64,000 nt of DNA from Escherichia coli (GTDB taxonomy: Bacteria; Pseudomonadota; Gammaproteobacteria; Enterobacterales; Enterobacteriaceae), in the NCBI RefSeq assembly GCF_030013595.1, contig NZ_CP122768.1; one strand, 5' to 3'. Every line of letters begins with the position of its first letter. Position 1 is the first letter of the stretch. The notes below the pieces were generated by a model. The model saw nothing but the letters and a program-made list of their open reading frames with translations. It did no database searches and was not told the DNA's origin. The translations under genes and the position numbers were made by a program. Shown in pieces: positions 10,649 through 47,409 of the stretch.

Positions 10649-13093
10649 TTACACCTTTTCAACCTGAACAAGGTTTGTATGTGACGGATTCCCCTTAGCG
10701 AGAGGAGACGGACGTTGAGTGGTCAGTACATTGATACAACCGCCCTTATCGACACGTTTTGCATCCGGGTCATACCAGGCACCTTCACCCAGTGCGACCA
10801 CACCCGGCATCATTCGTGGCGTCACTTTCGCCTCAATATGAACCTCACCACGATCGTTAAAGATCCTGACTTTATCGCCGTTGTTGATACCGCGTTTTTG
10901 CGCATCAAGCGGGTTGATCCACATTTCCTGACGGCAAGCCGCTTTCAGCACATCAACGTTGCCGTAAGTTGAGTGAACGCGAGATTTATAGTGGAAACCC
11001 GTAAGCTGCAGCGGATATTGTTTGTTCAGCGGATCCTGATAACTTTCAAAGCCCGGCGTATAGATCGGCAGTGGATCGATCACATCGCCTTCTGGCAATT
11101 CCCAAGTCGCGGCAATGTCAGCCAGCGCCTGCGAATAAATCTCAATTTTACCCGATGGCGTGGTCAGTGGATTTGCCTGAGGATCTTCACGGAAAGCTTT
11201 ATAAGCAACGTGGTGCCCTTGTGGGTCGCGCTTTTTAAAGATCCCCTGCTTGCGGAACTCTTCAAACGTTGGCAGTTCAGGAATCGCTTCCCGCGACTGG
11301 GCATACAGATGCCGCATCCACTCTTCCTGTGTACGGCCTTCAGTAAACTGTTGCTCAACGCCAAGACGTTTTGCCAGTTCGCTGGTCATTTCATAGATGG
11401 TCTTACATTCAAAGCGCGGTTTAATCACCTGATCGTTGAAAATCACGTAAGACATATTCCCGCAGGATGCATCCAGTGCAAAGTCCATCTGTTCGGAAGC
11501 GGTGCAGTCAGGCAGCAGGATGTCAGCATATTTCGCTGATGAGGTCATGTGGCAGTCGATAACCACAATCAGCTCGCACTTCTTATCATCCTGAAGGATT
11601 TCATGGGTACGGTTGATTTCAGAATGCTGGTTAATCAGGCAGTTACCGGCATAGTTCCAGATCATTTTGATCGGCACATCCAGCTTATCTTTCCCGCGCA
11701 CACCATCACGCAGCGCTGTCATTTCCGGGCCACGTTCAATGGCATCGGTCCACATAAACATCGAAATGCTGGTCTGGATCGGGTTTTCGAGGGTCGGCAT
11801 ACGGACAAACGGTAAGCTGTATGAACCTTCACGCGCGCCGCTGTTGCCTCCGTTAATACCAACGTTACCGGTCAAAATCGCCAGCATCGAGATAGCACGG
11901 GTTGCGATTTCACCGTTAGCGTGACGCTGCGGGCCCCATCCCTGGCTGATAAACGCCGGTTTGGTACTACCGATTTCACGAGCCAGTTTGATGATTTTGT
12001 CTGCCGGAACACCGGTGATTTGCGAGGCCCATTCCGGCGTTTTAGCCACGCCATCTGGCCCTTCACCCAGAATATAAGCTTTATAGTGACCATTTTTCGG
12101 CGCACTGGCTGGCAGTGTTTTCTCGTCGTAGCCAACGCAATATTTATCGAGGAATGCCTGATCCACCAGGTTTTCGGTGATCATGACATACGCCAGACCG
12201 TTAACCAGTGCGGCATCTGTTCCCGGACGAATAGGGATCCACTCATCTTCGCGCCCGGCACCGGTGTCGGTATAGCGCGGATCGATGATGATCATGCGAG
12301 CATTAGATTTCTGGCGCGCCTGTTCAAGATAGTAAGTCACCCCACCGCCACTCATTCGCGTTTCGCCAGGGTTATTACCAAACAGCACTACCAGTTTACT
12401 GTTTTCGATATCCGACGGGCTGTTACCATCTGCCCAGCCGCCGTAGGTATAGTTCAAACCTTCCGCAATTTGCGCGGAAGAGTAGTCACCGTAATGGTTC
12501 AGATAACCGCCGCAGCAGTTCATCAGGCGAGCGACCAGGGTATTTCCCGGCGGCCAGGAGCGGGTCATGGTGCCGCCCAGCGTACCGGTACCATAGTTCA
12601 GATAGATAGACTCGTTGCCGTACTCTTTGATCAGGCGCTGCATATTGGTCGCGATGATGTCGTAGGCTTCTTCCCAGCTAATGCGCTCGAATTTGCCTTC
12701 ACCGCGCGCCCCGACTCGTTTCATCGGATATTTCAGGCGGTCCGGATTGTAGACACGGCGACGCATGGAACGACCACGCAGACAGGCGCGCACCTGGTGC
12801 AGGCCGTCATAGTTGTCATCGCCAGTATTATCCGTTTCAACATATTTGATTTCACCGTCCACGACGTGCATACGTAGCGGGCAGCGACTACCACAGTTAA
12901 CTGTACAGGCGCTCCAGATAACCTTTTCGTCTGATTTTGTTGGAATGGCGCTATCGACAGCGTGCGCAATCCGACTAAAAGGTAATGTTAATGCGCTGCT
13001 GGCCATTGCCAGGCCGCCGATCGCTGTCGTTTTTACCAAACCACGGCGACTCACCTCAGCAGCCAATACCGCATCAGGGATTTTCGTTTTCAT
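10649..13093 (-). CDS. dmsA: DMSO reductase catalytic subunit (molybdopterin), Tat signal
   Basis: 814 aa, twin-arginine motif SRRGLVK in N-terminus, molybdopterin oxidoreductase sequence. Confidence 0.9.
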   Translation of the reverse strand: MKTKIPDAVLAAEVSRRGLVKTTAIGGLAMASSALTLPFSRIAHAVDSAIPTKSDEKVIWSACTVNCGSRCPLRMHVVDGEIKYVETDNTGDDNYDGLHQVRACLRGRSMRRRVYNPDRLKYPMKRVGARGEGKFERISWEEAYDIIATNMQRLIKEYGNESIYLNYGTGTLGGTMTRSWPPGNTLVARLMNCCGGYLNHYGDYSSAQIAEGLNYTYGGWADGNSPSDIENSKLVVLFGNNPGETRMSGGGVTYYLEQARQKSNARMIIIDPRYTDTGAGREDEWIPIRPGTDAALVNGLAYVMITENLVDQAFLDKYCVGYDEKTLPASAPKNGHYKAYILGEGPDGVAKTPEWASQITGVPADKIIKLAREIGSTKPAFISQGWGPQRHANGEIATRAISMLAILTGNVGINGGNSGAREGSYSLPFVRMPTLENPIQTSISMFMWTDAIERGPEMTALRDGVRGKDKLDVPIKMIWNYAGNCLINQHSEINRTHEILQDDKKCELIVVIDCHMTSSAKYADILLPDCTASEQMDFALDASCGNMSYVIFNDQVIKPRFECKTIYEMTSELAKRLGVEQQFTEGRTQEEWMRHLYAQSREAIPELPTFEEFRKQGIFKKRDPQGHHVAYKAFREDPQANPLTTPSGKIEIYSQALADIAATWELPEGDVIDPLPIYTPGFESYQDPLNKQYPLQLTGFHYKSRVHSTYGNVDVLKAACRQEMWINPLDAQKRGINNGDKVRIFNDRGEVHIEAKVTPRMMPGVVALGEGAWYDPDAKRVDKGGCINVLTTQRPSPLAKGNPSHTNLVQVEKV

Positions 13094-28104: not shown

Positions 28105-28192
28105 GGTGAGGTGTCCGAGTGGCTGAAGGAGCACGCCTGGAAAGTGTGTATACGGCAACGTATCGGGGGTTCGAATCCCCCCCTCACCGCCA
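28105..28192 (+). tRNA. serW: tRNA-Ser (anticodon GGA), long variable arm, CCA encoded
   Basis: GGTGAGGTGTCCGAGTGGCTGAAGGAGCACGCCTGGAAAGTG...GGGGTTCGAATCCCCCCCTCACCGCCA; acceptor stem pairs, anticodon loop CTGGAAA. Confidence 0.9.
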
Positions 28193-28341: not shown

Positions 28342-29184
28342 CTATACTGCCAGCATGTCAGGATAGTGTTTTGCGATAATATCATTCAGTCTGTCAACCA
28401 GTTCTGGTTTCCTGAACGTGATGTGTGCGGAGCCCTTCTTAAAGTATCTGATGCTGAACATCTCATCTTCATAGCTCTCTTTACCCTGAACAGACTGAAT
28501 GTGATCATCCAGACGAAGGGTGATGTTTCCCCGGTTGTCGGGGATTGGTTTGCCGCTGAACAGGTGCAGCATTCTTTCCAGGTCGGCAAGTCGATCTGCC
28601 TGTTGCCCGCTGTTCAGATGAAATCCCCACCGGTCCCATCTCACCAGATTGTTGACGATAATTTTATTACCAAATTTACAGGGGGAGTTGGTTTTGTAAT
28701 TCCAGCTCAACCCTCTGAAGACGTTGATCACCCCTCGCTCAAACACCTCATCCTTATTCTGGTGCAGTTGTTCAAATGTGCTCAGGATGTTCGCTTCGCT
28801 GATTTCCGGAAAATTATCGTACTCCAGTGACCGGTACCATGTATCACGGGCCTGCGCATCCATTAATGACAGCATCCCGGAACGTTGCATCAGGTCACGC
28901 CAGATTTCTCGATCGAGATTGCGGGTGATGGCTTTCATTGCTGCTTCCGGTTTTTCCATCAGCCAGCAGCCACAGCGAAAATCCTGTTTCATCGCCCAGT
29001 CCAGTGCGGTTTTACCGCCAATACTTTCTGTCATTGCTGAGATTTCAGCCAGTTGCCGGATAAGTGTGTCGATTTGCAGCAGCGTACTCTTTCGTACAGT
29101 CAGAATGTGGCGGATACTGGTTGAGCAGATAACGTCCGTATGCCCGTTGACCACTTCCGGACGGGAGGCTGTGATATCAGACAT
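28342..29184 (-). CDS. Island-associated hypothetical protein (280 aa), last gene of the toxin-antitoxin-distal module
   Basis: Long ORF with good coding look; no recognisable motif by eye. Confidence 0.5.
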   Translation of the reverse strand: MSDITASRPEVVNGHTDVICSTSIRHILTVRKSTLLQIDTLIRQLAEISAMTESIGGKTALDWAMKQDFRCGCWLMEKPEAAMKAITRNLDREIWRDLMQRSGMLSLMDAQARDTWYRSLEYDNFPEISEANILSTFEQLHQNKDEVFERGVINVFRGLSWNYKTNSPCKFGNKIIVNNLVRWDRWGFHLNSGQQADRLADLERMLHLFSGKPIPDNRGNITLRLDDHIQSVQGKESYEDEMFSIRYFKKGSAHITFRKPELVDRLNDIIAKHYPDMLAV

Positions 29185-29268
29185 AATCGATATTCCTTTT
29201 TGCAGATAAATGAAAACGCCAGCCCTGTTCAGGCTGGCGTCAGTGGAATGAAGTCTGGTGAGTAAGAC

Positions 29269-29466
29269 TCACTGGTTCTGTTGCAGAAACTGCAACTGGC
29301 GCAGGGTACGGATATCCTCCCTGGCCTGTTCAATGCAGGGCAGCAGTGCTGCCGAATCCGTTTTATCCTCATCGTTGTCAAAGATAATTCCCGATTCGCA
29401 GTCGATATTGTCCTGTAGCCACGCAATCAGAATATCCAGTGCGGTTTCCGTGGTTAATGATTTCAT
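29269..29466 (-). CDS. Small hypothetical protein (start may be 29511)
   Basis: ORF MKSLTTETALDILIAWLQDNIDCESGIIFDNDEDK...; overlaps stop of upstream gene. Confidence 0.35.
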   Translation of the reverse strand: MKSLTTETALDILIAWLQDNIDCESGIIFDNDEDKTDSAALLPCIEQAREDIRTLRQLQFLQQNQ

Positions 29467-29477
29467 GTTGTTCCTGG

Positions 29478-29966
29478 TTACCAGTCGAAAGTGGGCAGGT
29501 CCGGCAGACATTCAGCGCTGGCATCCAGATGAATGAGACTGACGCCATAACGTTGGATGAGTGTGACAACCAGACGACGGAACGTTTTTGACAGCCCCAG
29601 GCGCTTGAGCCGCAGAACCGGATATGACCACGCATCGGTACGTAACAGATATCCGCTACCTGTGAAATGAATCCATTCTGATTCACCGAAGTCACTGGTC
29701 TGGTGTGACAGCGAGTACAGCCAGGCGTTATCCTTTTCCGTGATATGTGCGGTACTGCAGCGTATGCCGGCAAGGGTTGCAAACGGTGGTAGTGTGCAGG
29801 TTGACTGTTGGTCGGATTCCTCCACCACGCGGAGTGAATAACCGTTTTCAGCGACCTTGTTAATCAGTTCAGTGAGATTAACACCATCGACGTCAGCGAC
29901 AATTCGCCCCATGTTCAGTGCCTGCACGTTAATGCTGTCGGCTTCCAGCGTCAGGGCCAGTTTCAT
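29478..29966 (-). CDS. Hypothetical protein immediately downstream of CbtA toxin (YeeW-position gene)
   Basis: 162-aa ORF, start overlaps cbtA stop by 4 bp (ATGA), indicating coupling. Confidence 0.45.
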   Translation of the reverse strand: MKLALTLEADSINVQALNMGRIVADVDGVNLTELINKVAENGYSLRVVEESDQQSTCTLPPFATLAGIRCSTAHITEKDNAWLYSLSHQTSDFGESEWIHFTGSGYLLRTDAWSYPVLRLKRLGLSKTFRRLVVTLIQRYGVSLIHLDASAECLPDLPTFDW

Positions 29967-30340
29967 TGTTTCGCCCCCGGATGTTTACCCAAGGTAATGT
30001 TATTTACCGTTCTGTAATTGTCGCGGGTCATCAGGCCTGTCGCCCGGCGGGCCCGGAGGATATCGATGCTGTTTATTAACTGAGAGTGGGTACAGGCGCT
30101 GAATCCCGGCTGGTCGGTACGCACCAGTGCGTATTTTTCCACGAGAAAGTTCACCGCATCACACAGTGAAATGCCAGCTTCAATATGCTGCTCAATCACA
30201 CGTTCATCGGCAAACGGTGTGTCATTCAGTGTGAGGCCGTAGTGCTGGTCCAGCAGTCGGGACAGCAGTATCTGCCAGATTTCAACAGGAGACGGGCGAG
30301 AACTGGCCGCCTGCCCGGGTAATACAGGTAATGTTTTCAT
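29963..30340 (-). CDS. cbtA: CbtA/YeeV/YkfI/YpjF-family toxin (type IV TA, cytoskeleton-binding)
   Basis: MKTLPVLPGQAASSRPSPVEIWQILLSRLLDQHYGLTLNDTPFADERVIEQHIEAGISLCDAVNFLVEKYALVRTD... near-identical to remembered K-12 YeeV. Confidence 0.8.
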   Translation of the reverse strand: MKTLPVLPGQAASSRPSPVEIWQILLSRLLDQHYGLTLNDTPFADERVIEQHIEAGISLCDAVNFLVEKYALVRTDQPGFSACTHSQLINSIDILRARRATGLMTRDNYRTVNNITLGKHPGAKQ

Positions 30341-30428: not shown

Positions 30429-30797
30429 TTAATTTTTCATTTTGGGCGTCGGATAAACAGCCAGATAAACGTAACCACAACTGCTGAGGGTATCGGCTTT
30501 GCAGGTCAGCCCTCTGGCATACAGCGTGACGGTATGCTGATGGCGGGGATTCAGTTCACCGCTGGTGAGCATGAGCTCCAGTTGTTTCATCAGCAGCGGA
30601 AGGGCCTGGTCCAGGTGGTACGCATCCGCGTCGCTGAACCGGCCTCTGATACCGGCACGGTCGGCAAGGTAATGCAACCGGTTACCCTCCTGCACCAGAC
30701 GTGCCCCAAAACAGGGCGTCACGGTGCAGGGTAGCCCCCACCAGGGGCGGTCGTTGTTATCGTCGGGATAATTTGTTTCATGGAGTGAGTCTGACAC
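30429..30797 (-). CDS. cbeA: CbeA/YeeU/YafW/YfjZ-family antitoxin (GTG start with AAGGA RBS; ORF-track start at 30905 is over-extension)
   Basis: ...PDDNNDRPWWGLPCTVTPCFGARLVQEGNRLHYLADRAGIRGRFSDADAYHLDQALPLLMKQLELMLTSGELNPRHQHTVTLYARGLTCKADTL... Confidence 0.8.
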   Translation of the reverse strand: MSDSLHETNYPDDNNDRPWWGLPCTVTPCFGARLVQEGNRLHYLADRAGIRGRFSDADAYHLDQALPLLMKQLELMLTSGELNPRHQHTVTLYARGLTCKADTLSSCGYVYLAVYPTPKMKN

Positions 30798-30846
30798 GAT
30801 AAAATCCTTACAGAAAATCGGTGAATGATAGTTTAACGATGACGAG

Positions 30847-31494
30847 TCAGCCGGCGCGCAGACCGGCTTCGGTGAAGGTGTATTCGTTGATGAGAAGGGC
30901 CTCATCCACAGCGGCGTCTGAGGTCAGCCAGTCGTACTCGTTTTCCAGTTGACGGTACAACCAGAAGGCCAGGTCGCGCAGGGCTTCGCTGACTGCGGCT
31001 TCCGCATCGGTTGTCATAGCCTGACCAGTCGGACTGTTCCGGGTGACGGTGATATCCATGCTGTACGGATGGCAGTAACGTCCCCTGTGACTGATTTCAG
31101 CCTGCAACTGCCAGAAGTTACGTTTCTGCACCGCCTGCAGGGCATCCGTGATACGATGAAGCTCACGGTCCTGCGGGGCATATTCCCTGATTTTCCGGGG
31201 TGCCGCTGGCTGCCAGTGCCAGCGCCCTTCAAAACAGGCTCCGTCCCCCTGGCTGCAGAATCCGCTGAACCAGATGCACGGCTCTTCCATAAACCTGCCG
31301 TTGCTGAGCCGGAAAACGCGCTGGCGGAGGCTAATCCCGAAAATGTTACAGACCTCCCTGAAGTCTTCATACACGTTTTCATACCAGTTGCTGTTAGCAT
31401 GATACTGACGGTACCAGTCGCGGGCTTTTTCCCGTGCAGCAGGGCAGGAAAGTTCATCCAGCGTATACACAGTGGTGGTGATAATGCTGCTCAT
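30847..31494 (-). CDS. Hypothetical 215-aa protein inserted between yeeT-like and cbeA
   Basis: Clean ORF MSSIITTTVYTLDELSCPAAREKARDWYRQYHANSNWYENVYEDF...; not part of the canonical yeeS-yeeT-yeeU-yeeV order as I remember it. Confidence 0.5.
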   Translation of the reverse strand: MSSIITTTVYTLDELSCPAAREKARDWYRQYHANSNWYENVYEDFREVCNIFGISLRQRVFRLSNGRFMEEPCIWFSGFCSQGDGACFEGRWHWQPAAPRKIREYAPQDRELHRITDALQAVQKRNFWQLQAEISHRGRYCHPYSMDITVTRNSPTGQAMTTDAEAAVSEALRDLAFWLYRQLENEYDWLTSDAAVDEALLINEYTFTEAGLRAG

Positions 31495-31512
31495 CAGAAT
31501 CCCCTTTCTGAT

Positions 31513-31734
31513 TCAGTTCAGGGTGACGCTCATCAGCCGGACATACGGGCCAAAACTGTCCTTACGGCGTTCTGCAAACACAGCCAGCACACCGGGAATA
31601 TCCTGCACTTCACGACCGGTATACGCCTCAGCACTGCCGTGCCAGCGGTACTTACCGGTGCAGAACGGAAAAAGACGGGATGCCGGATGCTGACGGTGAA
31701 TGCGCATGGCTTCACCACGGGTGATAATTTTCAT
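31513..31734 (-). CDS. YeeT/YkfH/YpjJ-family protein (DUF987)
   Basis: 73 aa MKIITRGEAMRIHRQHPASRLFPFCTGKYRWHGSAEAYTGREVQDIPGVLAVFAERRKDS... Confidence 0.7.
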   Translation of the reverse strand: MKIITRGEAMRIHRQHPASRLFPFCTGKYRWHGSAEAYTGREVQDIPGVLAVFAERRKDSFGPYVRLMSVTLN

Positions 31735-31802: not shown

Positions 31803-32294
31803 TTAAAGCAGACCGTGTTCGGCAAAGGAGAATACCTGGCTGCCACCGACTATCAGATGGTCCGGCACCCGGATATCCACCAGGCCCAGTGCCTGTACCA
31901 GACGTTCCGTGATAAGGCGGTCTGCCTTGCTGGGTGTGACTTCACCGGACGGGTGATTGTGTGCCAGTACCACAGCAGCGGCATTGTGATACAGGGCGCG
32001 TTTAATCACTTCCCGGGGATGGACTTCCGTGCGGTTGATGGTGCCGGTGAAGAGGGTTTCACCGGCAATCAACTGATTCTGGTTGTTCAGATACAGTACC
32101 CGGAACTCTTCCCGCTCCAGTCCTGCCATGTTCAGAATCAGCCATTCCCGTGCCGCATGCGTGGAGGTGAAGGCCACACCGGGTTCATGAAGATGGCGGT
32201 CCAGGGTTTTCAGGGCCCGCTGAATGAGGCTGCGCTCACCGGGCGTCATCTCTCCGGGCAGAAAGGAAAGCTGTTGCATTGTGCTTCTCTCCAT
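31803..32294 (-). CDS. RadC-like JAB/MPN-domain protein (YeeS/YkfG/YfjY family); start possibly at 32279
   Basis: JAMM motif HNHPSGE, ...LITERLVQALGLVDIRVPDHLIVGG... Confidence 0.8.
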   Translation of the reverse strand: MERSTMQQLSFLPGEMTPGERSLIQRALKTLDRHLHEPGVAFTSTHAAREWLILNMAGLEREEFRVLYLNNQNQLIAGETLFTGTINRTEVHPREVIKRALYHNAAAVVLAHNHPSGEVTPSKADRLITERLVQALGLVDIRVPDHLIVGGSQVFSFAEHGLL

Positions 32295-32780
32295 TCAGTC
32301 GATGATGCGCATAATGGCGCTGCATTCCGGATGCTGCAGGGCATAATCCCGCAGCCGGTAATAATGGACCGTCATGGCATAACACTCCGTACGACAGGCA
32401 TGATGACTGTACGTCATCAGACAGGCAGCAATGCCGGCGGCTTCCGGGCTCATTTCAGCGCGGTTACCGTTCATGACATTGAACAGTACCCATGTTTCGT
32501 CATCATCGTCATCCGGTTCGGGGGCCATAAATGCCCCGCCGTTGTTCAGGGTGTACAGATTCCAGATACCACCGCAGTAGTCTTCACACAGACGGTCCAT
32601 CCAGCCGAAGACACGGGGCTCCAGGGTCACCCACTGTGGAATAAGGCCAAAATGTTGCGGCCAGAAGCTGATGCGCTGTTCATCAGGGACGAGAGTAGCA
32701 ACCAGCTGAGGTGGGTTATTCCCTGATGCAGCGGTTACGGAAACAGAAGGTGTGGTGGAATTATGCGTAACGGTTGTCAT
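32295..32780 (-). CDS. Antirestriction protein (KlcA/ArdB-like; YafX/YfjX family)
   Basis: 161 aa with acidic stretch PEPDDDDDETW and conserved position next to radC-like gene. Confidence 0.7.
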   Translation of the reverse strand: MTTVTHNSTTPSVSVTAASGNNPPQLVATLVPDEQRISFWPQHFGLIPQWVTLEPRVFGWMDRLCEDYCGGIWNLYTLNNGGAFMAPEPDDDDDETWVLFNVMNGNRAEMSPEAAGIAACLMTYSHHACRTECYAMTVHYYRLRDYALQHPECSAIMRIID

Positions 32781-32871
32781 GAGATTATTCCTTATAAAAA
32801 GTAAATGAATGGAAGAATGTCCGGAGGCAGGGACGGAAGTGAGTCAGGACTGCGCTTTCAGGGAAAAGGCA

Positions 32872-33690
32872 TCAGCGCATGCTCTCCAGCAGCGTTTCTG
32901 CCATCACCCACAATGCGCGATTGAGCTTAATGTCGGTGTCGATGCTGTGAATGGCCCGGGTGTGGATACGTTTTCCTCTGGCACTGCGACCGGAAATTCC
33001 GCCTTTCAGCATATTCTCCTGGATGGTCTGATATGCGCTCCACAGGTCCTTGCCGTAATCCTCCCTGCGTCGTGGTGTCAGAATGTCAGCAGTGGTGACG
33101 GGCTGATGTTCGTCACCATAACGGTAAGTCAGTGCCGCCTGCGCCAGTGCCTGGCGTGCCGGTGGCGGCAGGACCAGCGACTGCATGGCATCACGTTTCT
33201 CCTCAATCCGGTCAAACACGCCCACCACTTCGTAAGCCCCTTCAATAACTTTCTCCACCACGTTTCCCCGGTGCGGAACACGCACTTCCCCCAGAGACTG
33301 ACCACAGACGCAGCCGTTCTGGCAGACGAATCTGAAGTAACCCGGCAGCATCTGGTAGCTGGAGGTACCGTCATGGGAGTTGAGCAGAATAATTTCAGGG
33401 ACATGTTGTCCGGTTATCTCCCCGTCACGCCGCAGACGCAGCATGTGTTTTGTGTATTCCCGGCGACCCGGGTCACGCACACGTGTCTGGCAGGCGAAGA
33501 ATGGCTGAAAGCCTTCCCGCTGCAGACTTTCCAGTACGGTGATGGTGGGAATGTACGCATAGCGTTCACTGCGGGAGGTATGCCGGTCTTCTCCAAAAAT
33601 ACTGGGAACATAGTGCATCAGCTCTTCATGTGTCAGTGGACGTTCACGGCGTATCTGGTTTGTATAACCAAAACGACTGGCTAATCGCAT
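32872..33690 (-). CDS. DUF932-family protein (YafZ/YfjQ-like)
   Basis: 272 aa; family assignment from remembered similarity to CP4 prophage proteins. Confidence 0.65.
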   Translation of the reverse strand: MRLASRFGYTNQIRRERPLTHEELMHYVPSIFGEDRHTSRSERYAYIPTITVLESLQREGFQPFFACQTRVRDPGRREYTKHMLRLRRDGEITGQHVPEIILLNSHDGTSSYQMLPGYFRFVCQNGCVCGQSLGEVRVPHRGNVVEKVIEGAYEVVGVFDRIEEKRDAMQSLVLPPPARQALAQAALTYRYGDEHQPVTTADILTPRRREDYGKDLWSAYQTIQENMLKGGISGRSARGKRIHTRAIHSIDTDIKLNRALWVMAETLLESMR

Positions 33691-36036: not shown

Positions 36037-37107
36037 TTATTTAATCCGGGCCATCGCGTTTCTCAGTGCCGAATCTGCACCTTCAGTTATCTCCTGGCTT
36101 TTCTGTAATACCGCCTCTGACCGGGTCAGTGCCTGACGCGCCGCCAGTGGTTTCCGGATATGCTCCATCGTCAGCATCGTGTCCTCGTAGCCCTGCTGAC
36201 GCCAGGCGTCGATATGTGCCGACGTGAAACTGAGCAGACCGCCACTGTTGCCACCATCACCTGCATGTTTCAGCCTTTTCCGGGGACGGATTTCAAGGAT
36301 TGTGGTGTCCGGAAAAGCCCGACGATCCCATAAAGAACCGTCACTCAGATGCGTCACAATCACCATATTGCATCCGGCATCCACCAGTGGCGTCACGGGA
36401 GTATTCCCCTGCCTGTTTCGCCATCCGCCCATCCCACCATCACCGTACATTGTTCCCTGAACCTCGCGGGGACGGAACAGCAGAGGCAGCGCGGCTGACG
36501 CCAGTAAAGCTTCTTTCTGCTGCCCGCGGGGCAGACTCTGGATATGCTGAAAAACGGCGTTTTTCGTGGTTCCGGCACCCAGTTCAGCACGAATGCAGTC
36601 AATAATATCCTGCATGCCTCCTTCTGTGGGGTACAGCGACACGTACAGCGGTAGCCCGTCAGCCAGAGCATCTGTATCAAGATAATGATCCATCAGCGCT
36701 GTCAGGGGCTCATCTGACAACAGCGGCTGAATCATCGGATTGTCGAACCCGTTGATTGTCGATATATGGCGAAAAAGCGTCGTAAGCAGTGCGCCCGCAC
36801 GTCCGGGGATCTGGCAGAGGTTCATGGCCTGAACCAGTTTTTTCAGCAATGAAAAGTAAACCGATCTGTTTACCGACAGAACCTGATTATTCCCCAGATG
36901 ATCCCAGAGCGCCTCCAGGCGTAAGGTGGCTTCTGACAGATCGGGAGAGGCCGCGATAATGGCACCATTGAGAGCCCCGATACTGGCTCCTGAGACCATA
37001 CTGATCTGTGCGCCGCACTCTGCCAGTGCCTTAACCACCCCCGCCTGATAAGCGCCCACCGCTCCGCCGCCGGACAGCACCAGCCCCGTTTGCATTTCTG
37101 TACTCAT
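36037..37107 (-). CDS. Patatin-like phospholipase
   Basis: GGGAVGAYQAG oxyanion motif, GASIG serine-lipase motif (GxSxG), YGDGG Asp motif; start overlaps upstream gene stop by 4 bp. Confidence 0.8.
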   Translation of the reverse strand: MSTEMQTGLVLSGGGAVGAYQAGVVKALAECGAQISMVSGASIGALNGAIIAASPDLSEATLRLEALWDHLGNNQVLSVNRSVYFSLLKKLVQAMNLCQIPGRAGALLTTLFRHISTINGFDNPMIQPLLSDEPLTALMDHYLDTDALADGLPLYVSLYPTEGGMQDIIDCIRAELGAGTTKNAVFQHIQSLPRGQQKEALLASAALPLLFRPREVQGTMYGDGGMGGWRNRQGNTPVTPLVDAGCNMVIVTHLSDGSLWDRRAFPDTTILEIRPRKRLKHAGDGGNSGGLLSFTSAHIDAWRQQGYEDTMLTMEHIRKPLAARQALTRSEAVLQKSQEITEGADSALRNAMARIK

Positions 37108-38009
37108 GCCTCTCCCTTCTGAAATATTTCATCAACCATACTTTCAGAGAGGCGTTCTGCAGAGCAGAGACGGGGCATACGAACCGGTAAGTGTTCTGCA
37201 GCCTGCGTGGTTGACCAGATCACAGGATGCCGCTCTTCACTGCACCAGTCCCCCAGCCAGTTAACCGCTTCATGCCATTCGTTATCAGCCTGTTCCCGGC
37301 GCTGACCACCAAGCCAGTCCAGTGTGTTCAGACGTACTGTTGCGCTACCGCCACTCTCCCGTGCCATCTGCGTTAATGCTTTATATCTGAGAATATCCAG
37401 TAACTGATTAACCTGGCCTGTTTCACCCTGACGAATCACATCACCAAACGCGCCCCAGCGAAGCTCTTCAAGCGCCACATAACAACGTCCGGCAGGGGAA
37501 AATGACGCGTATCGCCCGGCGCTCCACCACGAGAATATCTGCTCAAGATGTAACTGTGCCCGCTGAACCTGGTCAACACGGTGGAGTTTTTCCTCAAGAT
37601 GATTCAGTTTCTGATGAACCTGTTCTGCCAGAGTGAGTAACTGCTCCCGCGTGTCAGCCGAATAATGCGCCAGCCTGGCAGTATCACTGACCAGTGAACT
37701 GACCCTGTCGTTTACCCGGGTAATCGCGTAGTTTGTGGTGGCAAGTGACGTTGTCAGCTCCGTCAGCCAGCGCAGGGACGCCTCAACGCCCTGTGCAAGC
37801 GACGCATTGATGGCATTCTGCCGTGCAGCGCCTTCGCCGGTCAGCCCCTCTTTTAAACGCCGGAAGAACGTGCGCTCTCCGGCCGTGCGGATATGCTCCT
37901 GTGCAACATCGATTCCGTTTGCGAAATCAACCACAAATTTTTCAGGAAGACAGGTGAGTACCTGACATACCCGGTTATCAGCAATTTGTTGAATAAATGG
38001 TGAAGTCAC
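37104..38009 (-). CDS. Hypothetical protein (301 aa) between dynamin-like GTPase and patatin genes
   Basis: ORF overlaps both neighbours by 4 bp (ATGA), implying a coupled operon; no motif recognised. Confidence 0.6.
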   Translation of the reverse strand: MTSPFIQQIADNRVCQVLTCLPEKFVVDFANGIDVAQEHIRTAGERTFFRRLKEGLTGEGAARQNAINASLAQGVEASLRWLTELTTSLATTNYAITRVNDRVSSLVSDTARLAHYSADTREQLLTLAEQVHQKLNHLEEKLHRVDQVQRAQLHLEQIFSWWSAGRYASFSPAGRCYVALEELRWGAFGDVIRQGETGQVNQLLDILRYKALTQMARESGGSATVRLNTLDWLGGQRREQADNEWHEAVNWLGDWCSEERHPVIWSTTQAAEHLPVRMPRLCSAERLSESMVDEIFQKGEA

Positions 38010-40393
38010 AGCATTGTCTCCAGCTCTTCCCTCAGCGCCTTACTGTCAGTAATGAGCTCAGGAACCCTTTCATTTAATGCCTGAAGTCGCCCGGTAAGCC
38101 GTTCCTGCGCCTGCTGATCGCGTTTATGATCTTCAGAGCTCTGAATCAGCGTGTTACGCAGTTGTTCAACTTTCTCCCTGAATGCGCAGAAAAAGGCATC
38201 GATTTCCTGGCGGACGGGCTGGTTAATATCCTGCTCAATGGATGCCTGCAGCTCCCCGAAATATGCCCGGGTCAGTGACATAACTTCCTCTCTGGCCTTG
38301 TTGATATTGATCACGCTGCGACTCACATCCTCGTCATAGTTTTCCCAGCCCAGGTCACTGGTGCCAAACCATCGACAAACGGTTCCCCATACGCCACTCT
38401 GCCGACGGCGACGGGTGACGGTCTCCGTTCTTTCCTCCATAAGCGCACTCAGATTTATTTTTACCGCGAGCCGGGTCTGTAACTGGCTGACTGCCGGAAA
38501 ACTGATTTTTACGGTAAAGCCCTCATCCTCCAGGCGGGCATTGATGCGACCGGCAATGTTTTCTGTGGCGTACAGGGCCGTGCCACGAAAACCTGTTTCA
38601 ATCCCGCTGACGATTTTCTCCAGCTCAGGCCGGAACTGTGCTTCAGCCTCACGGTGCAGGCTGGTCACGGTCGATTCGATTTGCGTCATCAGTTCAAGGG
38701 CTGCCCTGCGATCACTGAATTTTATTTCGGGGCTGTCCGGATCAAAGTCCCGCATCCTGTCATGCTGATTTCCGGTTCCGAAAATATCGTGAAAGAAAGC
38801 GAATGCGTTTCTCTCCCGGGGCTGCGCTGAATTTTCTTCCTCCAGCATTTGCTGTTCTTTGCGTTTACCGCTTCTGAAATAGTCGTTCAGCTCCTCCTCC
38901 AGTGAGGCACAGACCTTCGTCAGTAATTCCCCGGTTTTGGTATTGATGTCCTCCATGGCCATTCTGACATCACCGGTCACCTGATTCTGACATTCCTCAA
39001 TCTCCTGGATATCCGCCAGCAGGCTGGTAATATGCGCCTGTAGTGACTGAATGCTTTGCTGCAGCCCCTGATGACGTAATGACAGATATTCGCTGACATT
39101 TTCTGCATTCTGCATCAGTTTTGCGGCGGCAGAGTCAACCGCCAGTGCCGCCGCTCTGGAATGGGAGCTCTGTATGACTTCCGTTATCAGTTGATCGATC
39201 AGAGATATATTCCAGAGTTTTTCTGCCTTTTTATTTACCTTAGTGCTGTCTTTCCAGTCGTCCTCTTCCACCATAGGTCCGAAAGCTTCCCTGATAAAAT
39301 CATCGACCCAGGCTTCATCAACCGGAAGCGCACCGTTTTTTCGTAACTCATGAAGCGCACGGTTAGCCAGGTACGCCTGACGTGATGAGCCGGGATAAAC
39401 GCGGGAGGCGGGCAGCACATCGCTGTTCAGCATTGCTGGCACCTTCTGGCGTACGGCATCCGCACCATCACCATTGCGATCTTTTTCATCGAATTTATTG
39501 ACCAGCACAAACAGACGACCGGCTGAGACGTCAGCAATGGCATTAAGCTCTTTACGAACCTCCTCATCGGCTTTCGAGTTCATCTGGGTGTAATCCATCA
39601 CCGCCAGCACCGCAGAGGCTTTCTGTAGTTGATCCCGCATCATCATTTCCATCTGTGGTTGTCCGGCTTCATTAGGGCCGGGGGTATCCAGCAGTGTGAG
39701 TGTTCCCTGACATGCATCCATTCCCACCAGGTGGCTGAACGCCACGTCGATCACCGGTAGTTTCTGCACTTCTGCGTATTCGTCAAAAGGAAATTCAGTC
39801 CCCATTGCCGCAGCAAGACGAACCAGGTCATTTAACGATGCCAGTCCGGTAAAGATTTCGTCTTCCCCGTGGTATTCATTTTTAAGCCAGACATCATCCG
39901 CCAGAATATCCAGTAGTTCGCGGGTATCCCCGGTTTGCTGCAGGGACTGTGCGACTTGCTGCCCTGCCGGGGTGGCGAGTTTTTCCTGCAGTGTGATTAA
40001 TAAATTGCGGACGGGCTGAATATGTTCCAGATGGAGGACCGGTTCCGTTTTTCCGGGAACGTGGCGGATCAATGTCGGTACCGAGGTCATGGGGCGGTTA
40101 CGGTTGGGCAGAATTTCCTGCCCCACAATGGCGTTGATGGTGGTTGATTTGCCCGCCTTCATCGTGCCGACCACAGCCAGCACCATCTCCCTGCGGGCGG
40201 TTTTGATTTGTTCGCCCTCCAGCTCCTCAATTCTTTTCAGCGCTTTCCGTTTATCAAAAAGCAGCCCGTTTTCGTTCTTACTGTCAGATAACACATCCGG
40301 CTCATCAACCATTTGCCGGAGCAGATTGATATTCAGTTGCAAAAGCCGGTCGGCTTCATCACAAAGCAGGGCGATGTTCTTTTCGTGCATCAT
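38006..40393 (-). CDS. Dynamin-family large GTPase (bacterial dynamin-like protein)
   Basis: 795 aa; N-terminal G-domain with P-loop GTMKAGKSTTINAIVG, DTPG-like G3 (LLDTPGPNE), long coiled-coil-like C-terminal region. Confidence 0.75.
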   Translation of the reverse strand: MMHEKNIALLCDEADRLLQLNINLLRQMVDEPDVLSDSKNENGLLFDKRKALKRIEELEGEQIKTARREMVLAVVGTMKAGKSTTINAIVGQEILPNRNRPMTSVPTLIRHVPGKTEPVLHLEHIQPVRNLLITLQEKLATPAGQQVAQSLQQTGDTRELLDILADDVWLKNEYHGEDEIFTGLASLNDLVRLAAAMGTEFPFDEYAEVQKLPVIDVAFSHLVGMDACQGTLTLLDTPGPNEAGQPQMEMMMRDQLQKASAVLAVMDYTQMNSKADEEVRKELNAIADVSAGRLFVLVNKFDEKDRNGDGADAVRQKVPAMLNSDVLPASRVYPGSSRQAYLANRALHELRKNGALPVDEAWVDDFIREAFGPMVEEDDWKDSTKVNKKAEKLWNISLIDQLITEVIQSSHSRAAALAVDSAAAKLMQNAENVSEYLSLRHQGLQQSIQSLQAHITSLLADIQEIEECQNQVTGDVRMAMEDINTKTGELLTKVCASLEEELNDYFRSGKRKEQQMLEEENSAQPRERNAFAFFHDIFGTGNQHDRMRDFDPDSPEIKFSDRRAALELMTQIESTVTSLHREAEAQFRPELEKIVSGIETGFRGTALYATENIAGRINARLEDEGFTVKISFPAVSQLQTRLAVKINLSALMEERTETVTRRRRQSGVWGTVCRWFGTSDLGWENYDEDVSRSVININKAREEVMSLTRAYFGELQASIEQDINQPVRQEIDAFFCAFREKVEQLRNTLIQSSEDHKRDQQAQERLTGRLQALNERVPELITDSKALREELETML

Positions 40394-40500: not shown

Positions 40501-43350
40501 TCAGAAAGTCATATTCAGCGTAGCCTGACCGTTATAGCCTTCAGCGCTGCTGCCGCTGACGCTGTGGGCATAACCGGCCTGAACGCCCAGGGTGATATTT
40601 TCCCGGATACGGGCTTCCAGTCCGGCCTGCAGGTCCAGTGACGTGCCATTCCGGGACGGTGAGAACGTCATGTTACTGCCGGCTGCGGCTGTCCCCATGC
40701 TCATGTCACCCCGGGAGCTGAAGGTGCGGATAACAGAAGGCTGTACCCACCAGTTCACCGGCAGTTCACTCACACTGTGTTTTGCACTGTCGCGCAGGGT
40801 GTCACGGGATGAGGTGCCTTCACCAAAGGTCATATCGTTGTGGCTGCCCAGACGGAAACCGGCACGCACATGTTGTGCACTGCCATGCCCGAACTTCACA
40901 TAACCGGCGTTATCCTGGCCGTCATCCAGGGAGAGTCCCTGCCAGGTGTACTGCAGTTGTGGCTCCAGCATCAGATTGTCAGTGATACTGAAGGGCAGAC
41001 CGGTTTCCAGTGAGCCCAGCCAGCCCCAGCCCCGGGCGCGGAAGTCGTTATTGTCCGATGACGCTTTCATGCTGTGACGGGTTCCCTGGGCCACAATGTC
41101 AGCCCACAGGCCGGAGGATGTGTGTACCAGATTCAGGTATCCGCCCAGACTGCCGGCATCATCCCGGACCGTGCCGGCGCGGGAACCGTCATCATCCTTA
41201 ACATCAACGGAAGAATGGCCTGCAGCACCATACACCCCTGTCGTCAGAGACATACCGGCAACCTCTGTTCTGAGCAGGTCACCCTCCAGACGGACGAAGC
41301 CATAGCTGCCGCTGCTTTCCGGCGTGGCTCCACGGGCAATACCGCCGTTGTTATCGTGACCGAGATGACCGCCCTGAATGCTGAGACGGACGCTGTTATT
41401 TTCACCGTTTACACCGGTCTGATGGCTGCGGGAGCCTGCCAGAATCCGGTCATAGTCCATTGCCTGTGTCAACATGGATGTATACAGGGGGACTTCAGCA
41501 CGATAAGCATTTTCACTGCGCAGGTACCAGTCTTCATCGCTGTCACGGTTCAGGGTGTAGTTAAAGGCGCCGGCCTGAAGCGGGCGACTCAGGGCAAACG
41601 CACCTTCTTCTGTGGTGGCGCCATTCTGTGCATCCACAACCCGGATACCCTGTCCGGTGGTTGCCACCCCGAGGTTGCTGTTTCCGACATTTGTAAACGC
41701 AAGCCAGGTTTTGCCGGTTGCCTGACCACCATTAATCACCAGCTGGTCAGAGGCATTGCTGCCATCAAGGCGAACACGCATATTGATGGTGCCGCCCTGG
41801 CCGGTGAGGTTCGTGGTGGTCAGTTTATGGAACGTTACCGGGGAGTTACTTTTTGCAACAGCACGGCTCAGCGCGGCATTCGGTGTCGTCTGATTATCAA
41901 AGCGAATCTCCCCTGCGTTAACAATATCGCCGGTACTGACCACATCACCATTCAGTACCATACTGGCGCCTTTACTGAGCTGTGTTCTGCCACTCAGACT
42001 TCCCCCGGCAGCCAGCGTCAGTGTTCCACGATGTCCGACAGTGGTGTTGCCAGCCTGTCCCCCGGCATTAACCGTAAAGCTGCCGCCATTTTCCAGCAGC
42101 AGGCCGCTGGCCTGACCGGATGTGCCATCAATACTGAACTTACCGCTGGCATTGGTCCCCTCAACAGTGGCACCACTGTCTGCAATCAGGGCACCACCGG
42201 ATGTTATGGTGACACTTGTCGCCTTACCGCCGGCAGACACTGCCAGGGTACCGCCGTCATCCACTAGGGTATTCTGTGCTGAATGGCTCTCCAGTACATC
42301 CAGACGACCGCCGGATTCCAGAACAACACCGTCAGCCTTACCGTTTTCCACCGTGAAATTCCCCAGACGGTTTGTGCCGATGACAGTTGCAGCAGTACTG
42401 GTAACCAGTGCACCGCCCGTGTTCTGGGTGACTGCAGTGGCTTCCCCGCCGGCATGTACCCTCAGTTCACCGTTCTGATTTATGGTGGTGTTACCGGCAG
42501 CGCCACCTGCCTTAACAACCTGCCAGCCCCCCTCGTTAATTACCGTGTTCAGCGCAAGTCCGTCCCTGTGCACATACTGGTAACCGCCATTCAGTGTGGT
42601 ATTCAGGGCCCTTCCGTGTACCGACTGGTCACCACCTGCGTAAATGAGAGTGTCACGGGCTAGCCCGGAAAATAAGATAATCTGCCGTCCATTTTTGTTG
42701 ATGGTGGTGGATTCTGCTGTTCCCTGGACCTTCTGACCCGTATACGAGTTGTCAGAATCAGGGCCGCCTTCTGCGCCGGTGTTGATGATGGTTCCTGTTG
42801 CCAGCCCGCCACTTTTAACGCTCTGGTAACCGTCGCGGTTGATAATTGTACCGGTGGCAACCCCGCCCTCATGCACCCACTGCTCGCCTCTGTTATTCAG
42901 TGTGGTGTTCACCGCCAGTCCGTTCAGGCTCTGTCCCCCGCCGTCACGAATAACCGTATCACTGGCTGTTCCCCCCTCCAGCACGACCTGACGACCATTT
43001 GTGGTGACAGTGGTGTTTCCGGCTATCCCGCCATTCTGTATCCATTGCCCACCGGTGTTTTCTTCACTGTCCGGCCCCAGTTCCAGCCCGGTACTGATGG
43101 TCATTCCGTTGGCCGTACCGAAGACAATCTGGTTGTCATGATTTGTCAGTGTTCCATCGTTCACGGTTTCTCCCGCCTGTACAACCTTGTCAGCAGCCAG
43201 TGCCGGGACTGATGTGACAGCAGCAAGAGACAGCGCAACCGCCACACCGGCGCGTTTTCCCCGTGAGCGGGCCAGTTCGGAAGCCACCACCAGGGTGCCC
43301 GTAATGTGATTCCATACCAGCCTGTAGCTGGTGTTCAGATGTCGTTTCAT
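40501..43350 (-). CDS. flu: Antigen 43-type self-associating autotransporter adhesin (AIDA-I family)
   Basis: Extended signal peptide MKRHLNTSYRLVWNHITGTLVVASELA..., Gly/Thr-rich beta-helical repeats, C-terminal beta-barrel ending ...QATLNMTF. Confidence 0.85.
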   Translation of the reverse strand: MKRHLNTSYRLVWNHITGTLVVASELARSRGKRAGVAVALSLAAVTSVPALAADKVVQAGETVNDGTLTNHDNQIVFGTANGMTISTGLELGPDSEENTGGQWIQNGGIAGNTTVTTNGRQVVLEGGTASDTVIRDGGGQSLNGLAVNTTLNNRGEQWVHEGGVATGTIINRDGYQSVKSGGLATGTIINTGAEGGPDSDNSYTGQKVQGTAESTTINKNGRQIILFSGLARDTLIYAGGDQSVHGRALNTTLNGGYQYVHRDGLALNTVINEGGWQVVKAGGAAGNTTINQNGELRVHAGGEATAVTQNTGGALVTSTAATVIGTNRLGNFTVENGKADGVVLESGGRLDVLESHSAQNTLVDDGGTLAVSAGGKATSVTITSGGALIADSGATVEGTNASGKFSIDGTSGQASGLLLENGGSFTVNAGGQAGNTTVGHRGTLTLAAGGSLSGRTQLSKGASMVLNGDVVSTGDIVNAGEIRFDNQTTPNAALSRAVAKSNSPVTFHKLTTTNLTGQGGTINMRVRLDGSNASDQLVINGGQATGKTWLAFTNVGNSNLGVATTGQGIRVVDAQNGATTEEGAFALSRPLQAGAFNYTLNRDSDEDWYLRSENAYRAEVPLYTSMLTQAMDYDRILAGSRSHQTGVNGENNSVRLSIQGGHLGHDNNGGIARGATPESSGSYGFVRLEGDLLRTEVAGMSLTTGVYGAAGHSSVDVKDDDGSRAGTVRDDAGSLGGYLNLVHTSSGLWADIVAQGTRHSMKASSDNNDFRARGWGWLGSLETGLPFSITDNLMLEPQLQYTWQGLSLDDGQDNAGYVKFGHGSAQHVRAGFRLGSHNDMTFGEGTSSRDTLRDSAKHSVSELPVNWWVQPSVIRTFSSRGDMSMGTAAAGSNMTFSPSRNGTSLDLQAGLEARIRENITLGVQAGYAHSVSGSSAEGYNGQATLNMTF

Positions 43351-44820: not shown

Positions 44821-45471
44821 ATGAATGCACGAAAAGCGGTACTGGCAGACAATCCGGAATTGATCCTGCGTGTGCTACAGCTGAGATTTGACGAGTCACT
44901 GTCGTACCCGCGCATTTCTGCGCAGACCGGTGTCAGCAAAACCGCCATTTTTTCTCTGGTGAGGCGATTTCACCAGGTATTCACTGACTGGCCTCTTTCC
45001 GGTGAATATTCCTGCGGGCAACTGGCCCGGGCTCTTTTCCCGGGGCGATACCCTTCAGCCCCGACCGTGACTCAGCCTGTGAAAGCAGAGAAACCCCGCC
45101 GGAACCGATTTTCACCGGAGTTTAAATGGAGACTGGTTCAGCAAACTCTTTTACCCGGTGCCTGTGTCGCACAAATAGCTCGAGAGAATGGAATTAACGA
45201 TAACCTGCTCTTTAACTGGCGGCATCTCTGGCGTAACGGTGGCCTGCAACCGCCCGGCGAACATGAAACATCGCTACTTCCCGTGACGTTAACTCCGGAG
45301 CCGGATAATAAAATCCCGGCACCAGTGCAGATACCTGAACAGATAAATACACTGCCAGACAGTCTGTGCTGCGAGCTGGTTCTGCCGGCCGGAACTCTCA
45401 GGCTGAAAGGTGAACTGACACCGGCGTTATTACAGACACTTATCCGCGAAATGAAAGGGAGCAGCCACTGA
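44821..45471 (+). CDS. IS66-family OrfA-like protein with ~90-aa N-terminal extension
   Basis: C-terminal two thirds (...RRNRFSPEFKWRLVQQTLLPGACVAQIARENGINDNLLFNWR...) resembles IS66 OrfA; N-terminal part does not. Confidence 0.55.
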   Translation: MNARKAVLADNPELILRVLQLRFDESLSYPRISAQTGVSKTAIFSLVRRFHQVFTDWPLSGEYSCGQLARALFPGRYPSAPTVTQPVKAEKPRRNRFSPEFKWRLVQQTLLPGACVAQIARENGINDNLLFNWRHLWRNGGLQPPGEHETSLLPVTLTPEPDNKIPAPVQIPEQINTLPDSLCCELVLPAGTLRLKGELTPALLQTLIREMKGSSH

Positions 45472-45818
45472 TGATATCTCTCCCTGCCGGTTCGCGTATC
45501 TGGCTGGTTGCCGGTATCACCGATATGCGAAATGGCTTTAACGGCCTGGCCTCAAAAGTTCAGAACGTCCTGAAGGATGACCCGTTCTCCGGGCATCTGT
45601 TCATCTTCCGCGGACGCCGGGGTGACCAGATAAAAGTGCTGTGGGCTGACAGTGACGGACTGTGCCTCTTCACCAAACGCCTGGAGCGGGGCCGCTTCGT
45701 CTGGCCGGTCACCCGCGATGGAAAGGTTCACCTTACTCCGGCTCAGTTGTCCATGCTTCTCGAAGGCATCGACTGGAAGCACCCGAAACGAACGGAACGC
45801 GCTGGCATCCGCATATAA
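45471..45818 (+). CDS. IS66-family accessory protein TnpB (Orf2)
   Basis: MISLPAGSRIWLVAGITDMRNGFNGLASKVQNVLKDDPFSGHLFIFRGRRGDQIKVLWAD... typical IS66 Orf2. Confidence 0.8.
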   Translation: MISLPAGSRIWLVAGITDMRNGFNGLASKVQNVLKDDPFSGHLFIFRGRRGDQIKVLWADSDGLCLFTKRLERGRFVWPVTRDGKVHLTPAQLSMLLEGIDWKHPKRTERAGIRI

Positions 45819-45837
45819 CCCGTTGTAAAGTGAGGAT

Positions 45838-47409
45838 ATGGACACCTCACTTGCTCATGAGAATGCCCGCCTGCGGGCACTGTTGCAGACGCAACAGGAC
45901 ACCATCCGCCAGATGGCGAAATACAACCGCCTGCTCTCACAGCGGGTGGCGGCTTATGCTTCCGAAATCAACCGGCTGAAGGCGCTGGTTGCGAAACTGC
46001 AGCGCATGCAGTTCGGTAAAAGCTCAGAAAAACTTCGCGCTAAAACCGAACGGCAGATACAGGAAGCCCAGGAGCGAATCAGCGCACTTCAGGAAGAAAT
46101 GGCGGAAACGCTGGATGAGCAATATGACCCGGTACTGCCATCCGCCCTGCGCCAGTCTTCAGCCCGTAAGCCGTTACCGGCCTCACTTCCCCGTGAAACC
46201 CGGGTCATCCGGCCGGAAGAGGAATGCTGCCCGGCCTGTGGTGGTGACCTCAGTCCTCTGGGGTGTGATGTGTCAGAGCAACTGGAGCTTATCAGCAGCG
46301 CCTTTAAGGTTATCGAAACACAACGTCCGAAACTGGCCTGTTGCCGGTGCGACCATATCGTGCAGGCAACAGTACCTTCAAAACCCATTGCACGCAGTTA
46401 TGCCGGAGCGGGGCTTCTGGCCCATGTTGTTACCGGGAAATATGCAGACCATCTGCCGTTATACCGCCAGTCAGAAATATACCGTCGCCAGGGCGTGGAG
46501 CTGAGCCGCGCCACGCTGGGGCGCTGGACAGGTGCCGTTGCTGAACTGCTGGAGCCGCTGTATGACGTCCTGCGCCAGTATGTGCTGATGCCCGGTAAAG
46601 TCCATGCGGATGATATCCCCGTTCCGGTCCAGGAGCCGGGCAGTGGTAAAACAAGAACTGCCCGGCTGTGGGTCTATGTCCGTGATGACCGTAACGCCGG
46701 TTCACAGATGCCCCCGGCGGTCTGGTTCGCGTACAGCCCGGACCGGAAAGGTATCCATCCACAGAATCACCTGGCCGGTTACAGCGGTGTGCTTCAGGCA
46801 GATGCTTACGGTGGTTACCGGGCGTTATACGAATCCGGCAGAATAACGGAAGCCGCGTGTATGGCCCATGCCCGGAGAAAAATCCACGATGTGCATGCAA
46901 GAGTGCCAACCGACATCACCACGGAAGCCCTGCAGCGTATCGGTGAACTGTATGTCATCGAGGCAGAAGTCCGGGGATGTTCAGCAGAACAGCGTCTGGC
47001 AGCAAGAAAAGCCAGAGCGGCTCCACTGATGCAGTCACTGTATGACTGGATACAGGAACAGATGAAAACACTGTCGCGTCACTCGGATACGGCAAAAGCG
47101 TTCGCATACCTGCTGAAACAGTGGGAGGCCCTGAACGTGTACTGCAGTAATGGCTGGGTGGAAATCGACAACAACATCGCAGAGAACGCCTTACGGGGAG
47201 TGGCCGTAGGCCGGAAAAACTGGCTCTTCGCGGGTTCCGACAGCGGTGGCGAACATGCGGCGGTGTTGTACTCGCTGATCGGCACATGCCGTCTGAACAA
47301 TGTGGAACCAGAAAAATGGCTGCGTTACGTCATTGAGCATATCCAGGATTGGCCGGCAAACCGGGTACGCGATCTGTTGCCCTGGAAAGTTGATCTGACC
47401 TCTCAGTAA
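45838..47409 (+). CDS. IS66-family transposase TnpC
   Basis: 523 aa with leucine-zipper N-terminus, CxxC...CxxC zinc-finger-like motif (CPACGG...CCRC) and DDE-like core. Confidence 0.85.

Follow-up and report, generated by a model that had tools for sequence, protein, structure and literature searches.

The locus examined here raises the question of why a gene of 215 codons should stand between the DUF987 (yeeT-type) gene and the type IV antitoxin gene of a chromosomal island module in which K-12 has nothing of the kind, and of what such a gene might do. The original prediction had described an ORF of 215 aa, in the same orientation as its neighbours and tightly spaced with them, and this description is exact in every detail: the ORF, hereafter gene X, occupies positions 30847-31494 of the window (the whole stretch of 64,000 nucleotides that was analysed) on the minus strand, runs from an ATG start to a TGA stop, begins 18 nt past the DUF987 stop at 31513 and ends 49 nt ahead of the GTG at 30797, the RefSeq start of cbeA, with all three genes on the same strand. 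The accompanying statement that in K-12 the DUF987 gene is followed at once by the antitoxin gene is likewise borne out by MG1655, where 73, 37 and 18 nt separate the two genes in CP4-44, CP4-57 and CP4-6, respectively. The features of the window on which the argument draws are as follows.

28105 to 28192, plus strand: tRNA-Ser(GGA) gene serW, next to infA; integration site of the island
28342 to 29966, minus strand: genes for DUF5983, DUF957 and DUF4942, downstream of X and co-directional with it, ending at the island boundary
29963 to 30340, minus strand: cbtA toxin gene
30429 to 30797, minus strand: YeeU/CbeA-family type IV antitoxin gene (cbeA), GTG start
30847 to 31494, minus strand: gene X, an ORF with a 100% match to an annotated CDS (WP_000094919.1), backed by homologues, an AlphaFold2 model and dN/dS
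30847 to 30959, minus strand: the 3' 113 nt of X including its stop, a stretch that O157-type modules retain as a non-coding remnant after loss of the gene
31500 to 31505, minus strand: Shine-Dalgarno sequence of X, AGGGGA, 5 nt before the ATG, from the sequence and the K-12 alignment
31513 to 31734, minus strand: DUF987 (YeeT-type) gene, immediately upstream of X
31803 to 32279, minus strand: RadC/JAB gene, upstream of X and co-directional
32295 to 32780, minus strand: antirestriction PF03230 gene, upstream of X and co-directional
32872 to 33690, minus strand: DUF932 gene, upstream of X and co-directional
31803 to 33690, minus strand: these three upstream co-directional genes as a group

Read in the direction of transcription, the block runs DUF932, antirestriction PF03230, RadC/JAB, DUF987, X, CbeA, CbtA, DUF5983, DUF957 and DUF4942 and ends at serW; no promoter- or terminator-like sites were found on the minus strand between X and its neighbours, nor any repeats or mobile-element ends flanking X in the sequence read. 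Ahead of its GTG, the frame of cbeA happens to run on without a stop for a further 36 codons (30798-30905, minus strand); 59 nt of this stretch overlap X at its 3' end, and mechanical ORF lists therefore carry a spurious ORF of 158 aa extending to 30905. As to the wider setting, porcine ETEC strains, e.g. ETEC1747, match the window at 99.9% identity, and the island holds a three-gene cluster on the minus strand at ~36037-40390 (coordinates carried over from the ETEC1747 annotation) that encodes a dynamin-family protein, an RdcB-family protein and a patatin-like phospholipase and that may be a cassette for defence or signalling. Further cargo at ~40501-43350, at 44821-47409 and from ~50043 comprises a Cah/Ag43-family autotransporter, IS66 copies and remnants, a PerC-family regulator and IbrB-like and PAPS-reductase-like genes.

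The databases already contain gene X and its family, and for this reason the finding is in itself an ordinary one. The protein is 100% identical to RefSeq WP_000094919.1 and has been called as a CDS by RefSeq in thousands of genomes; the gene is thus an annotated one, of a family without a known function. The names under which X and its relatives are recorded are "hypothetical protein", "antitoxin of toxin-antitoxin stability system" and "DUF8835 domain-containing", and some relatives carry the RefSeq/UniProt name "Antitoxin of the YeeV-YeeU toxin-antitoxin system". X shares 87-93% identity with the E. coli clusters named "antitoxin of toxin-antitoxin stability system"/DUF8835 and 60-65% with the members so named in Salmonella, Klebsiella and Alphaproteobacteria; the RefSeq label DUF8835 domain-containing sits on alleles of X that are 93-96% identical. 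Full-length homology and the predicted fold together assign X to this family. Our literature searches found no paper on the protein and no experiment behind the "antitoxin" name, which appears to derive from the position of the gene beside cbtA and cbeA.

The BLAST and HMM searches that had been proposed as a check were fruitful as regards relatives and barren as regards named families. A search of 1.84 billion cluster representatives returned 3450 relatives at E<=1e-3, 397 of them at E<=1e-30, each relative being the representative of a cluster at 50% identity. Conversely, Pfam-A holds no significant family for X or for any of 70 relatives searched individually, NCBIfam gives no match for X, the PADLOC defence HMMs yield 0 families at E<=1, and the sole match among the PHROGs is phrog_5162, itself a family without known function. 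The AlphaFold2 model, built on an alignment of 70 sequences, is an alpha/beta fold of high confidence (pLDDT 96.6, pTM 0.89); against AFDB50, Foldseek superimposes it on members of the family with TM-scores of 0.96-0.98 and E-values down to 1e-38, no solved structure matches the fold, and sequence searches of the PDB with X alone and with a profile found no match. X is a soluble protein of 25 kDa with a pI of 5.3 and a net charge of -7, acidity being more pronounced across the family (median pI 4.8, median net charge -16). Six polar residues are nearly invariant in the family, namely E14, Q82, D84, Q123, H142 and N203, with Q82 and D84 lying within the motif FSGFxSQGDGAxFEG. None of five E. 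coli alleles compared across islands is broken, and their pairwise dN/dS values lie at 0.18-0.44, which points to purifying selection. Together with the RefSeq identity, the number of relatives and the confident model, this makes X a real gene, far beyond a chance ORF.

How often, then, does the module carry it? Of 5426 complete E. coli genomes, 1963 (36%) contain the body of X when positions 30965-31465 serve as the megablast query, with 2826 places in all; the DUF987 gene is found by the same method at 12904 places in 4801 of the 5426, so that about 22% of the DUF987 modules detectable by megablast carry X. The gene is therefore common in E. coli but in a minority among modules and among genomes, and the suggestion that it is an accessory gene of variable presence across homologous islands is well founded. 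The counter-possibility named with that suggestion, i.e. that X might prove a standard, annotated member of such modules in most E. coli genomes, is borne out as to the annotation and, on the evidence given below, as to ancestry, though not as to "most". The order DUF987-X-CbeA-CbtA recurs at five chromosomal sites, which are serW (the window), serX/ghrA (strains UMNK88 and ATCC 25922), cadC, pitB/yghD and the CP4-44 site between yeeA and tmaR, and an E. coli allele of only 65% identity keeps the same position within the module. In UMNK88 (L001) a 100%-identical X with the same annotated neighbours lies at serX, the other gene for tRNA-Ser(GGA), beside ghrA, and a 100%-identical copy is also present on a 260-kb E. 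coli plasmid (NZ_OQ420472.1, 257333-257977; H101).

The direction of the change between the two kinds of module can be read from what the gene-less modules have retained. In K-12, yeeT of CP4-44 is followed by a scar in which X survives as its Shine-Dalgarno sequence, its ATG and its 8 opening codons (MSRIIATT), after which the sequence resumes ~38 nt upstream of cbeA; 3494 of the 5426 E. coli genomes have a 5' scar of this CP4-44 type at >=80% coverage. At the orthologous site, with yeeA and tmaR flanking, strain Ecol_276 holds a complete X of 214 codons between yeeT and cbeA. Because the K-12 module keeps a 5' fragment of the gene where Ecol_276 has the whole of it, the change is a loss, and the polarity of the original prediction, which had taken X for an "extra" gene "inserted" in the module, is reversed. 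A second scar, seen in three aligned gene-less modules of the O157 type, consists of the last 113 nt of X with its stop, placed directly after the DUF987 stop; this 3' remnant appears as matches of 17% coverage with no annotated feature, and about 1080 places in E. coli hold the 3' stretch only (3908 minus 2826), a figure that is an estimate by subtraction from a search that joins pieces across a 535-nt gap. The two scars cannot have arisen one from the other, and X must therefore have been lost at least twice, independently; K-12 is without X because the gene has been deleted from the module repeatedly. The CP4-57 and CP4-6 modules, which are divergent, show no recognisable remnant of X. Taken together, these alignments argue that X is an old, original and often-deleted member of the enterobacterial tRNA-inserted island block, and that the modules without it, in K-12 and in most other cases, are deletion derivatives.

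Beyond E. coli the family keeps different company. A scan of one genome per species placed relatives of X in at least 487 species, and among the best 80 of these species-level loci, which are those most similar to the query and not representative of the whole family, 79 are alphaproteobacterial. A marker-protein search of the same 80 loci found CbtA, CbeA and DUF987 in a single one (Salmonella diarizonae), a 138-aa protein overlapping the start of X in 71, a large AAA_34/Helicase_C_4 helicase in 64, a Toprim primase-like gene in 52, a 710-aa protein in 51, YAcAr in 41 and ArdC in 38; individual loci also hold PF03230 antirestriction, DUF4326, ParB_N and DUF736 proteins, a relaxase, a T4CP or a plasmid replication protein, and a position of X relative to oriT is seen in one locus only, that of Tistrella (L005), where a NikA-like gene and a relaxase follow ~2.5 kb downstream of X. 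Relatives occur on 113 plasmids, of which 50 are predicted to be conjugative or mobilizable, and in 55 phage records. The Caulobacter jumbo phages CcrPW, CcrSC, CcrBL9 and CcrColossus encode homologues of 33-37% identity, e.g. gp017 of CcrPW (L109, 6001-6651), inside their long terminal repeats and hence twice per genome, and in the Pseudomonas phage UAntarctica the relative lies amid a run of small unannotated genes. Phages of Brevundimonas, Pseudomonas, Acinetobacter and enterobacteria carry relatives too. The main homes of the family are thus conjugative plasmids or ICEs and phage early or terminal-repeat regions, mostly without CbtA/CbeA; their common denominator is DNA that invades new cells, and several of the placements are typical of early-entering or establishment regions.

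Two further observations concern the neighbours of these distant homologues. The 138-aa protein, which bears the motifs MADYFTHFSC and FGGGAHV, stands directly upstream of X in alphaproteobacterial elements and overlaps its start codon (L006 7592-8008, L023 6592-7008 and 71 of the loci L025-L104); it has no Pfam match, and the idea that it is a hidden CbeA/YeeT homologue, so that CbeA and X would form an ancient pair, was abandoned, with an hhalign probability of 0.1% and nothing from BLAST. An X domain of 60% identity is also part of a 969-aa "fungal" protein in AFDB that is named for DUF4326 (A0A4P9WST2, Blyttiomyces helicus). In Devosia the genes for X and DUF4326 stand side by side, and on that account the entry is probably a contaminant contig from a bacterium, on which a eukaryotic gene caller joined neighbouring genes into one.

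Conjugative elements are known to gather many uncharacterized families in their leading regions, together with genes for anti-defence and TA functions (Samuel et al. 2024, PMC11541004). Against this background, the explanation that we favour, and hold to be moderately probable, is that X is an ancestral but dispensable accessory of mobile elements with an early establishment or anti-defence role, and no essential part of a TA system; the role itself we infer from genomic context, i.e. by guilt by association. X would be made soon after the DNA of the element enters a new cell and would bind or modify a protein of the host, most likely one concerned with defence or DNA processing; the action may proceed through a candidate conserved polar site (E14, Q82-G-D84, Q123, H142, N203) and would aid establishment of the element, and X would be no essential part of the CbtA/CbeA pair. 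A bolder version, which we put forward only tentatively and think rather less likely to be right than wrong, is that X founds a new and very widespread class of counter-defence or host-takeover proteins, carried alike by ICEs, plasmids, jumbo phages and enterobacterial islands, whose fold is unseen in solved structures, with Q82-G-D84 and H142 acting on a target in the host.

The nearly invariant polar residues could equally mark the active site of an enzyme, and this leads to the strongest of the competing explanations, by which X would serve the DNA metabolism of the element itself (replication, transfer or recombination) as an enzyme or factor, and would not counter host defence. Those six residues, in or beside FSGFxSQGDGAxFEG, do resemble an active or metal-binding site, and the alphaproteobacterial homologue sits in a conserved block with the AAA_34/Helicase_C_4 helicase, the Toprim primase-like gene and a ParB_N protein; however, no known catalytic family or fold corresponds to X, most E. 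coli islands do without it, and ICEs, plasmids, jumbo phages and degenerate islands have entry into a host in common, not machinery for replication or transfer. We consider this explanation unlikely.

The database names imply yet another one, namely that X joins CbtA and CbeA as a third member of the type IV module, be it a second antitoxin, an adaptor or a regulator. Adjacency speaks for it: in all the enterobacterial loci examined, the 65%-identical allele included, X is contiguous with cbeA and cbtA, and the association persists in a second gene order, DUF987-CbeA-X-CbtA, found in Klebsiella michiganensis (L020/L021, 6610-7996) and Salmonella diarizonae (L022, 6293-8084), where homologues of 61-62% identity lie between cbeA and cbtA. 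The enterobacterial sequences of X group together, weakly (34% bootstrap), in a neighbour-joining tree, which is compatible both with one acquisition and a later move within the module and with two separate acquisitions. The Salmonella diarizonae module has two tandem cbeA paralogues, the second of which is overlapped by X by 4 nt. There are, moreover, natural in-frame X::CbeA fusions of 343 aa (P0015, P0019 and P0004; L018, 3368-3382) with the junction ...GLRAG-L-PEDFI-VSD..., which arise, in alleles where X and cbeA lie 15 nt apart, by a change of TGA to TTA at the stop of X; the form is represented by at least 16 small clusters at 90% identity, one of them on a 4.66-Mb chromosome, and the fusion alleles retain the Shine-Dalgarno sequence and GTG of cbeA within them.

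Against this stand several observations, and we regard a part for X in the TA pair as quite improbable. Co-occurrence with cbtA is not obligate: 79 of the 80 best species-level loci, as well as the phage homologues examined, have no CbtA/CbeA nearby, and where X has been deleted, on at least two occasions, cbeA and cbtA are still intact, as they are in the modules that keep it. The K-12 CP4-44 pair, which lacks X and is the TA system whose function has been characterised by experiment, also counts against a third component. In Pfam-A, X has no homology to PF06154, which is hit only by the 343-aa fusions through their CbeA part, and neither X nor its 70 relatives resemble an antitoxin DNA-binding domain; the fusions themselves are rare small clusters in which cbeA keeps its own translation signals. 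On a direct binding of CbtA by X there is a weak negative: the AlphaFold2 model of X joined to CbtA through a (GGGGS)6 linker gave a pTM of 0.64, with low confidence in the linker and the CbtA tail and with low power owing to a shallow paired alignment, and because this value is about that expected of X alone (215 of 370 residues), no confident interface is predicted.

That X is cargo recently inserted between yeeT and cbeA, as its lack in all three K-12 modules and its presence in only about a fifth of the detectable ones might suggest, is scarcely credible in view of the 5' or 3' fragments at the exact position in gene-less modules, the full gene at the orthologous CP4-44 locus of another strain, the divergence of alleles at this position down to 65% protein identity and the lack of flanking repeats or mobile-element ends in the sequence read.

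These findings bear on how the module is to be read. K-12 is here the degenerate reference. The yeeS-yeeT-cbeA-cbtA module was originally one gene longer, and the gene survives, under a misleading "antitoxin" name, in about one in three complete E. coli genomes. What the present analysis adds to the database record is the recognition that the modules of K-12 and most others are, by their scars, deletion derivatives, that the gene exists in two orders and that the family is spread across ICEs, plasmids and phage early regions; it is on account of these three points that the "antitoxin" label becomes doubtful and X a reasonable target for anti-defence screening. A protein that is predicted to be well folded, is strongly conserved, has a fold with no match and is common to conjugative elements, phage early regions and pathogenicity-type islands is worth including in screens for establishment or anti-defence functions.

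X may also be set beside the known systems closest to it. With the NCBI/UniProt DUF8835/"antitoxin" family there is no difference to report, length, the motif FSGFxSQGDGAxFEG and predicted fold being the same. CbeA/YeeU (PF06154) resembles X in being its neighbour in the co-directional block and in being fused to it in frame in rare alleles, but the two have no sequence similarity, X is nearly twice as long, and most of the X family lives without CbeA. The antirestriction proteins ArdA, ArdB/KlcA (PF03230) and ArdC (PF08401) differ from X in that neither sequence nor fold similarity links X to any of them, and yet the likenesses are several: they are small, soluble proteins, as the members of the X family are acidic ones, they are carried by plasmids, ICEs and phages, and they share neighbourhoods with X, a PF03230 gene lying three genes upstream of X in the window and two genes downstream of it in Devosia, and ArdC occurring in nearly half of the 80 loci. 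A further parallel is with the uncharacterized families enriched in plasmid leading regions (Samuel et al. 2024, PMC11541004), since X too is conserved and lies beside anti-defence and TA genes on conjugative elements.
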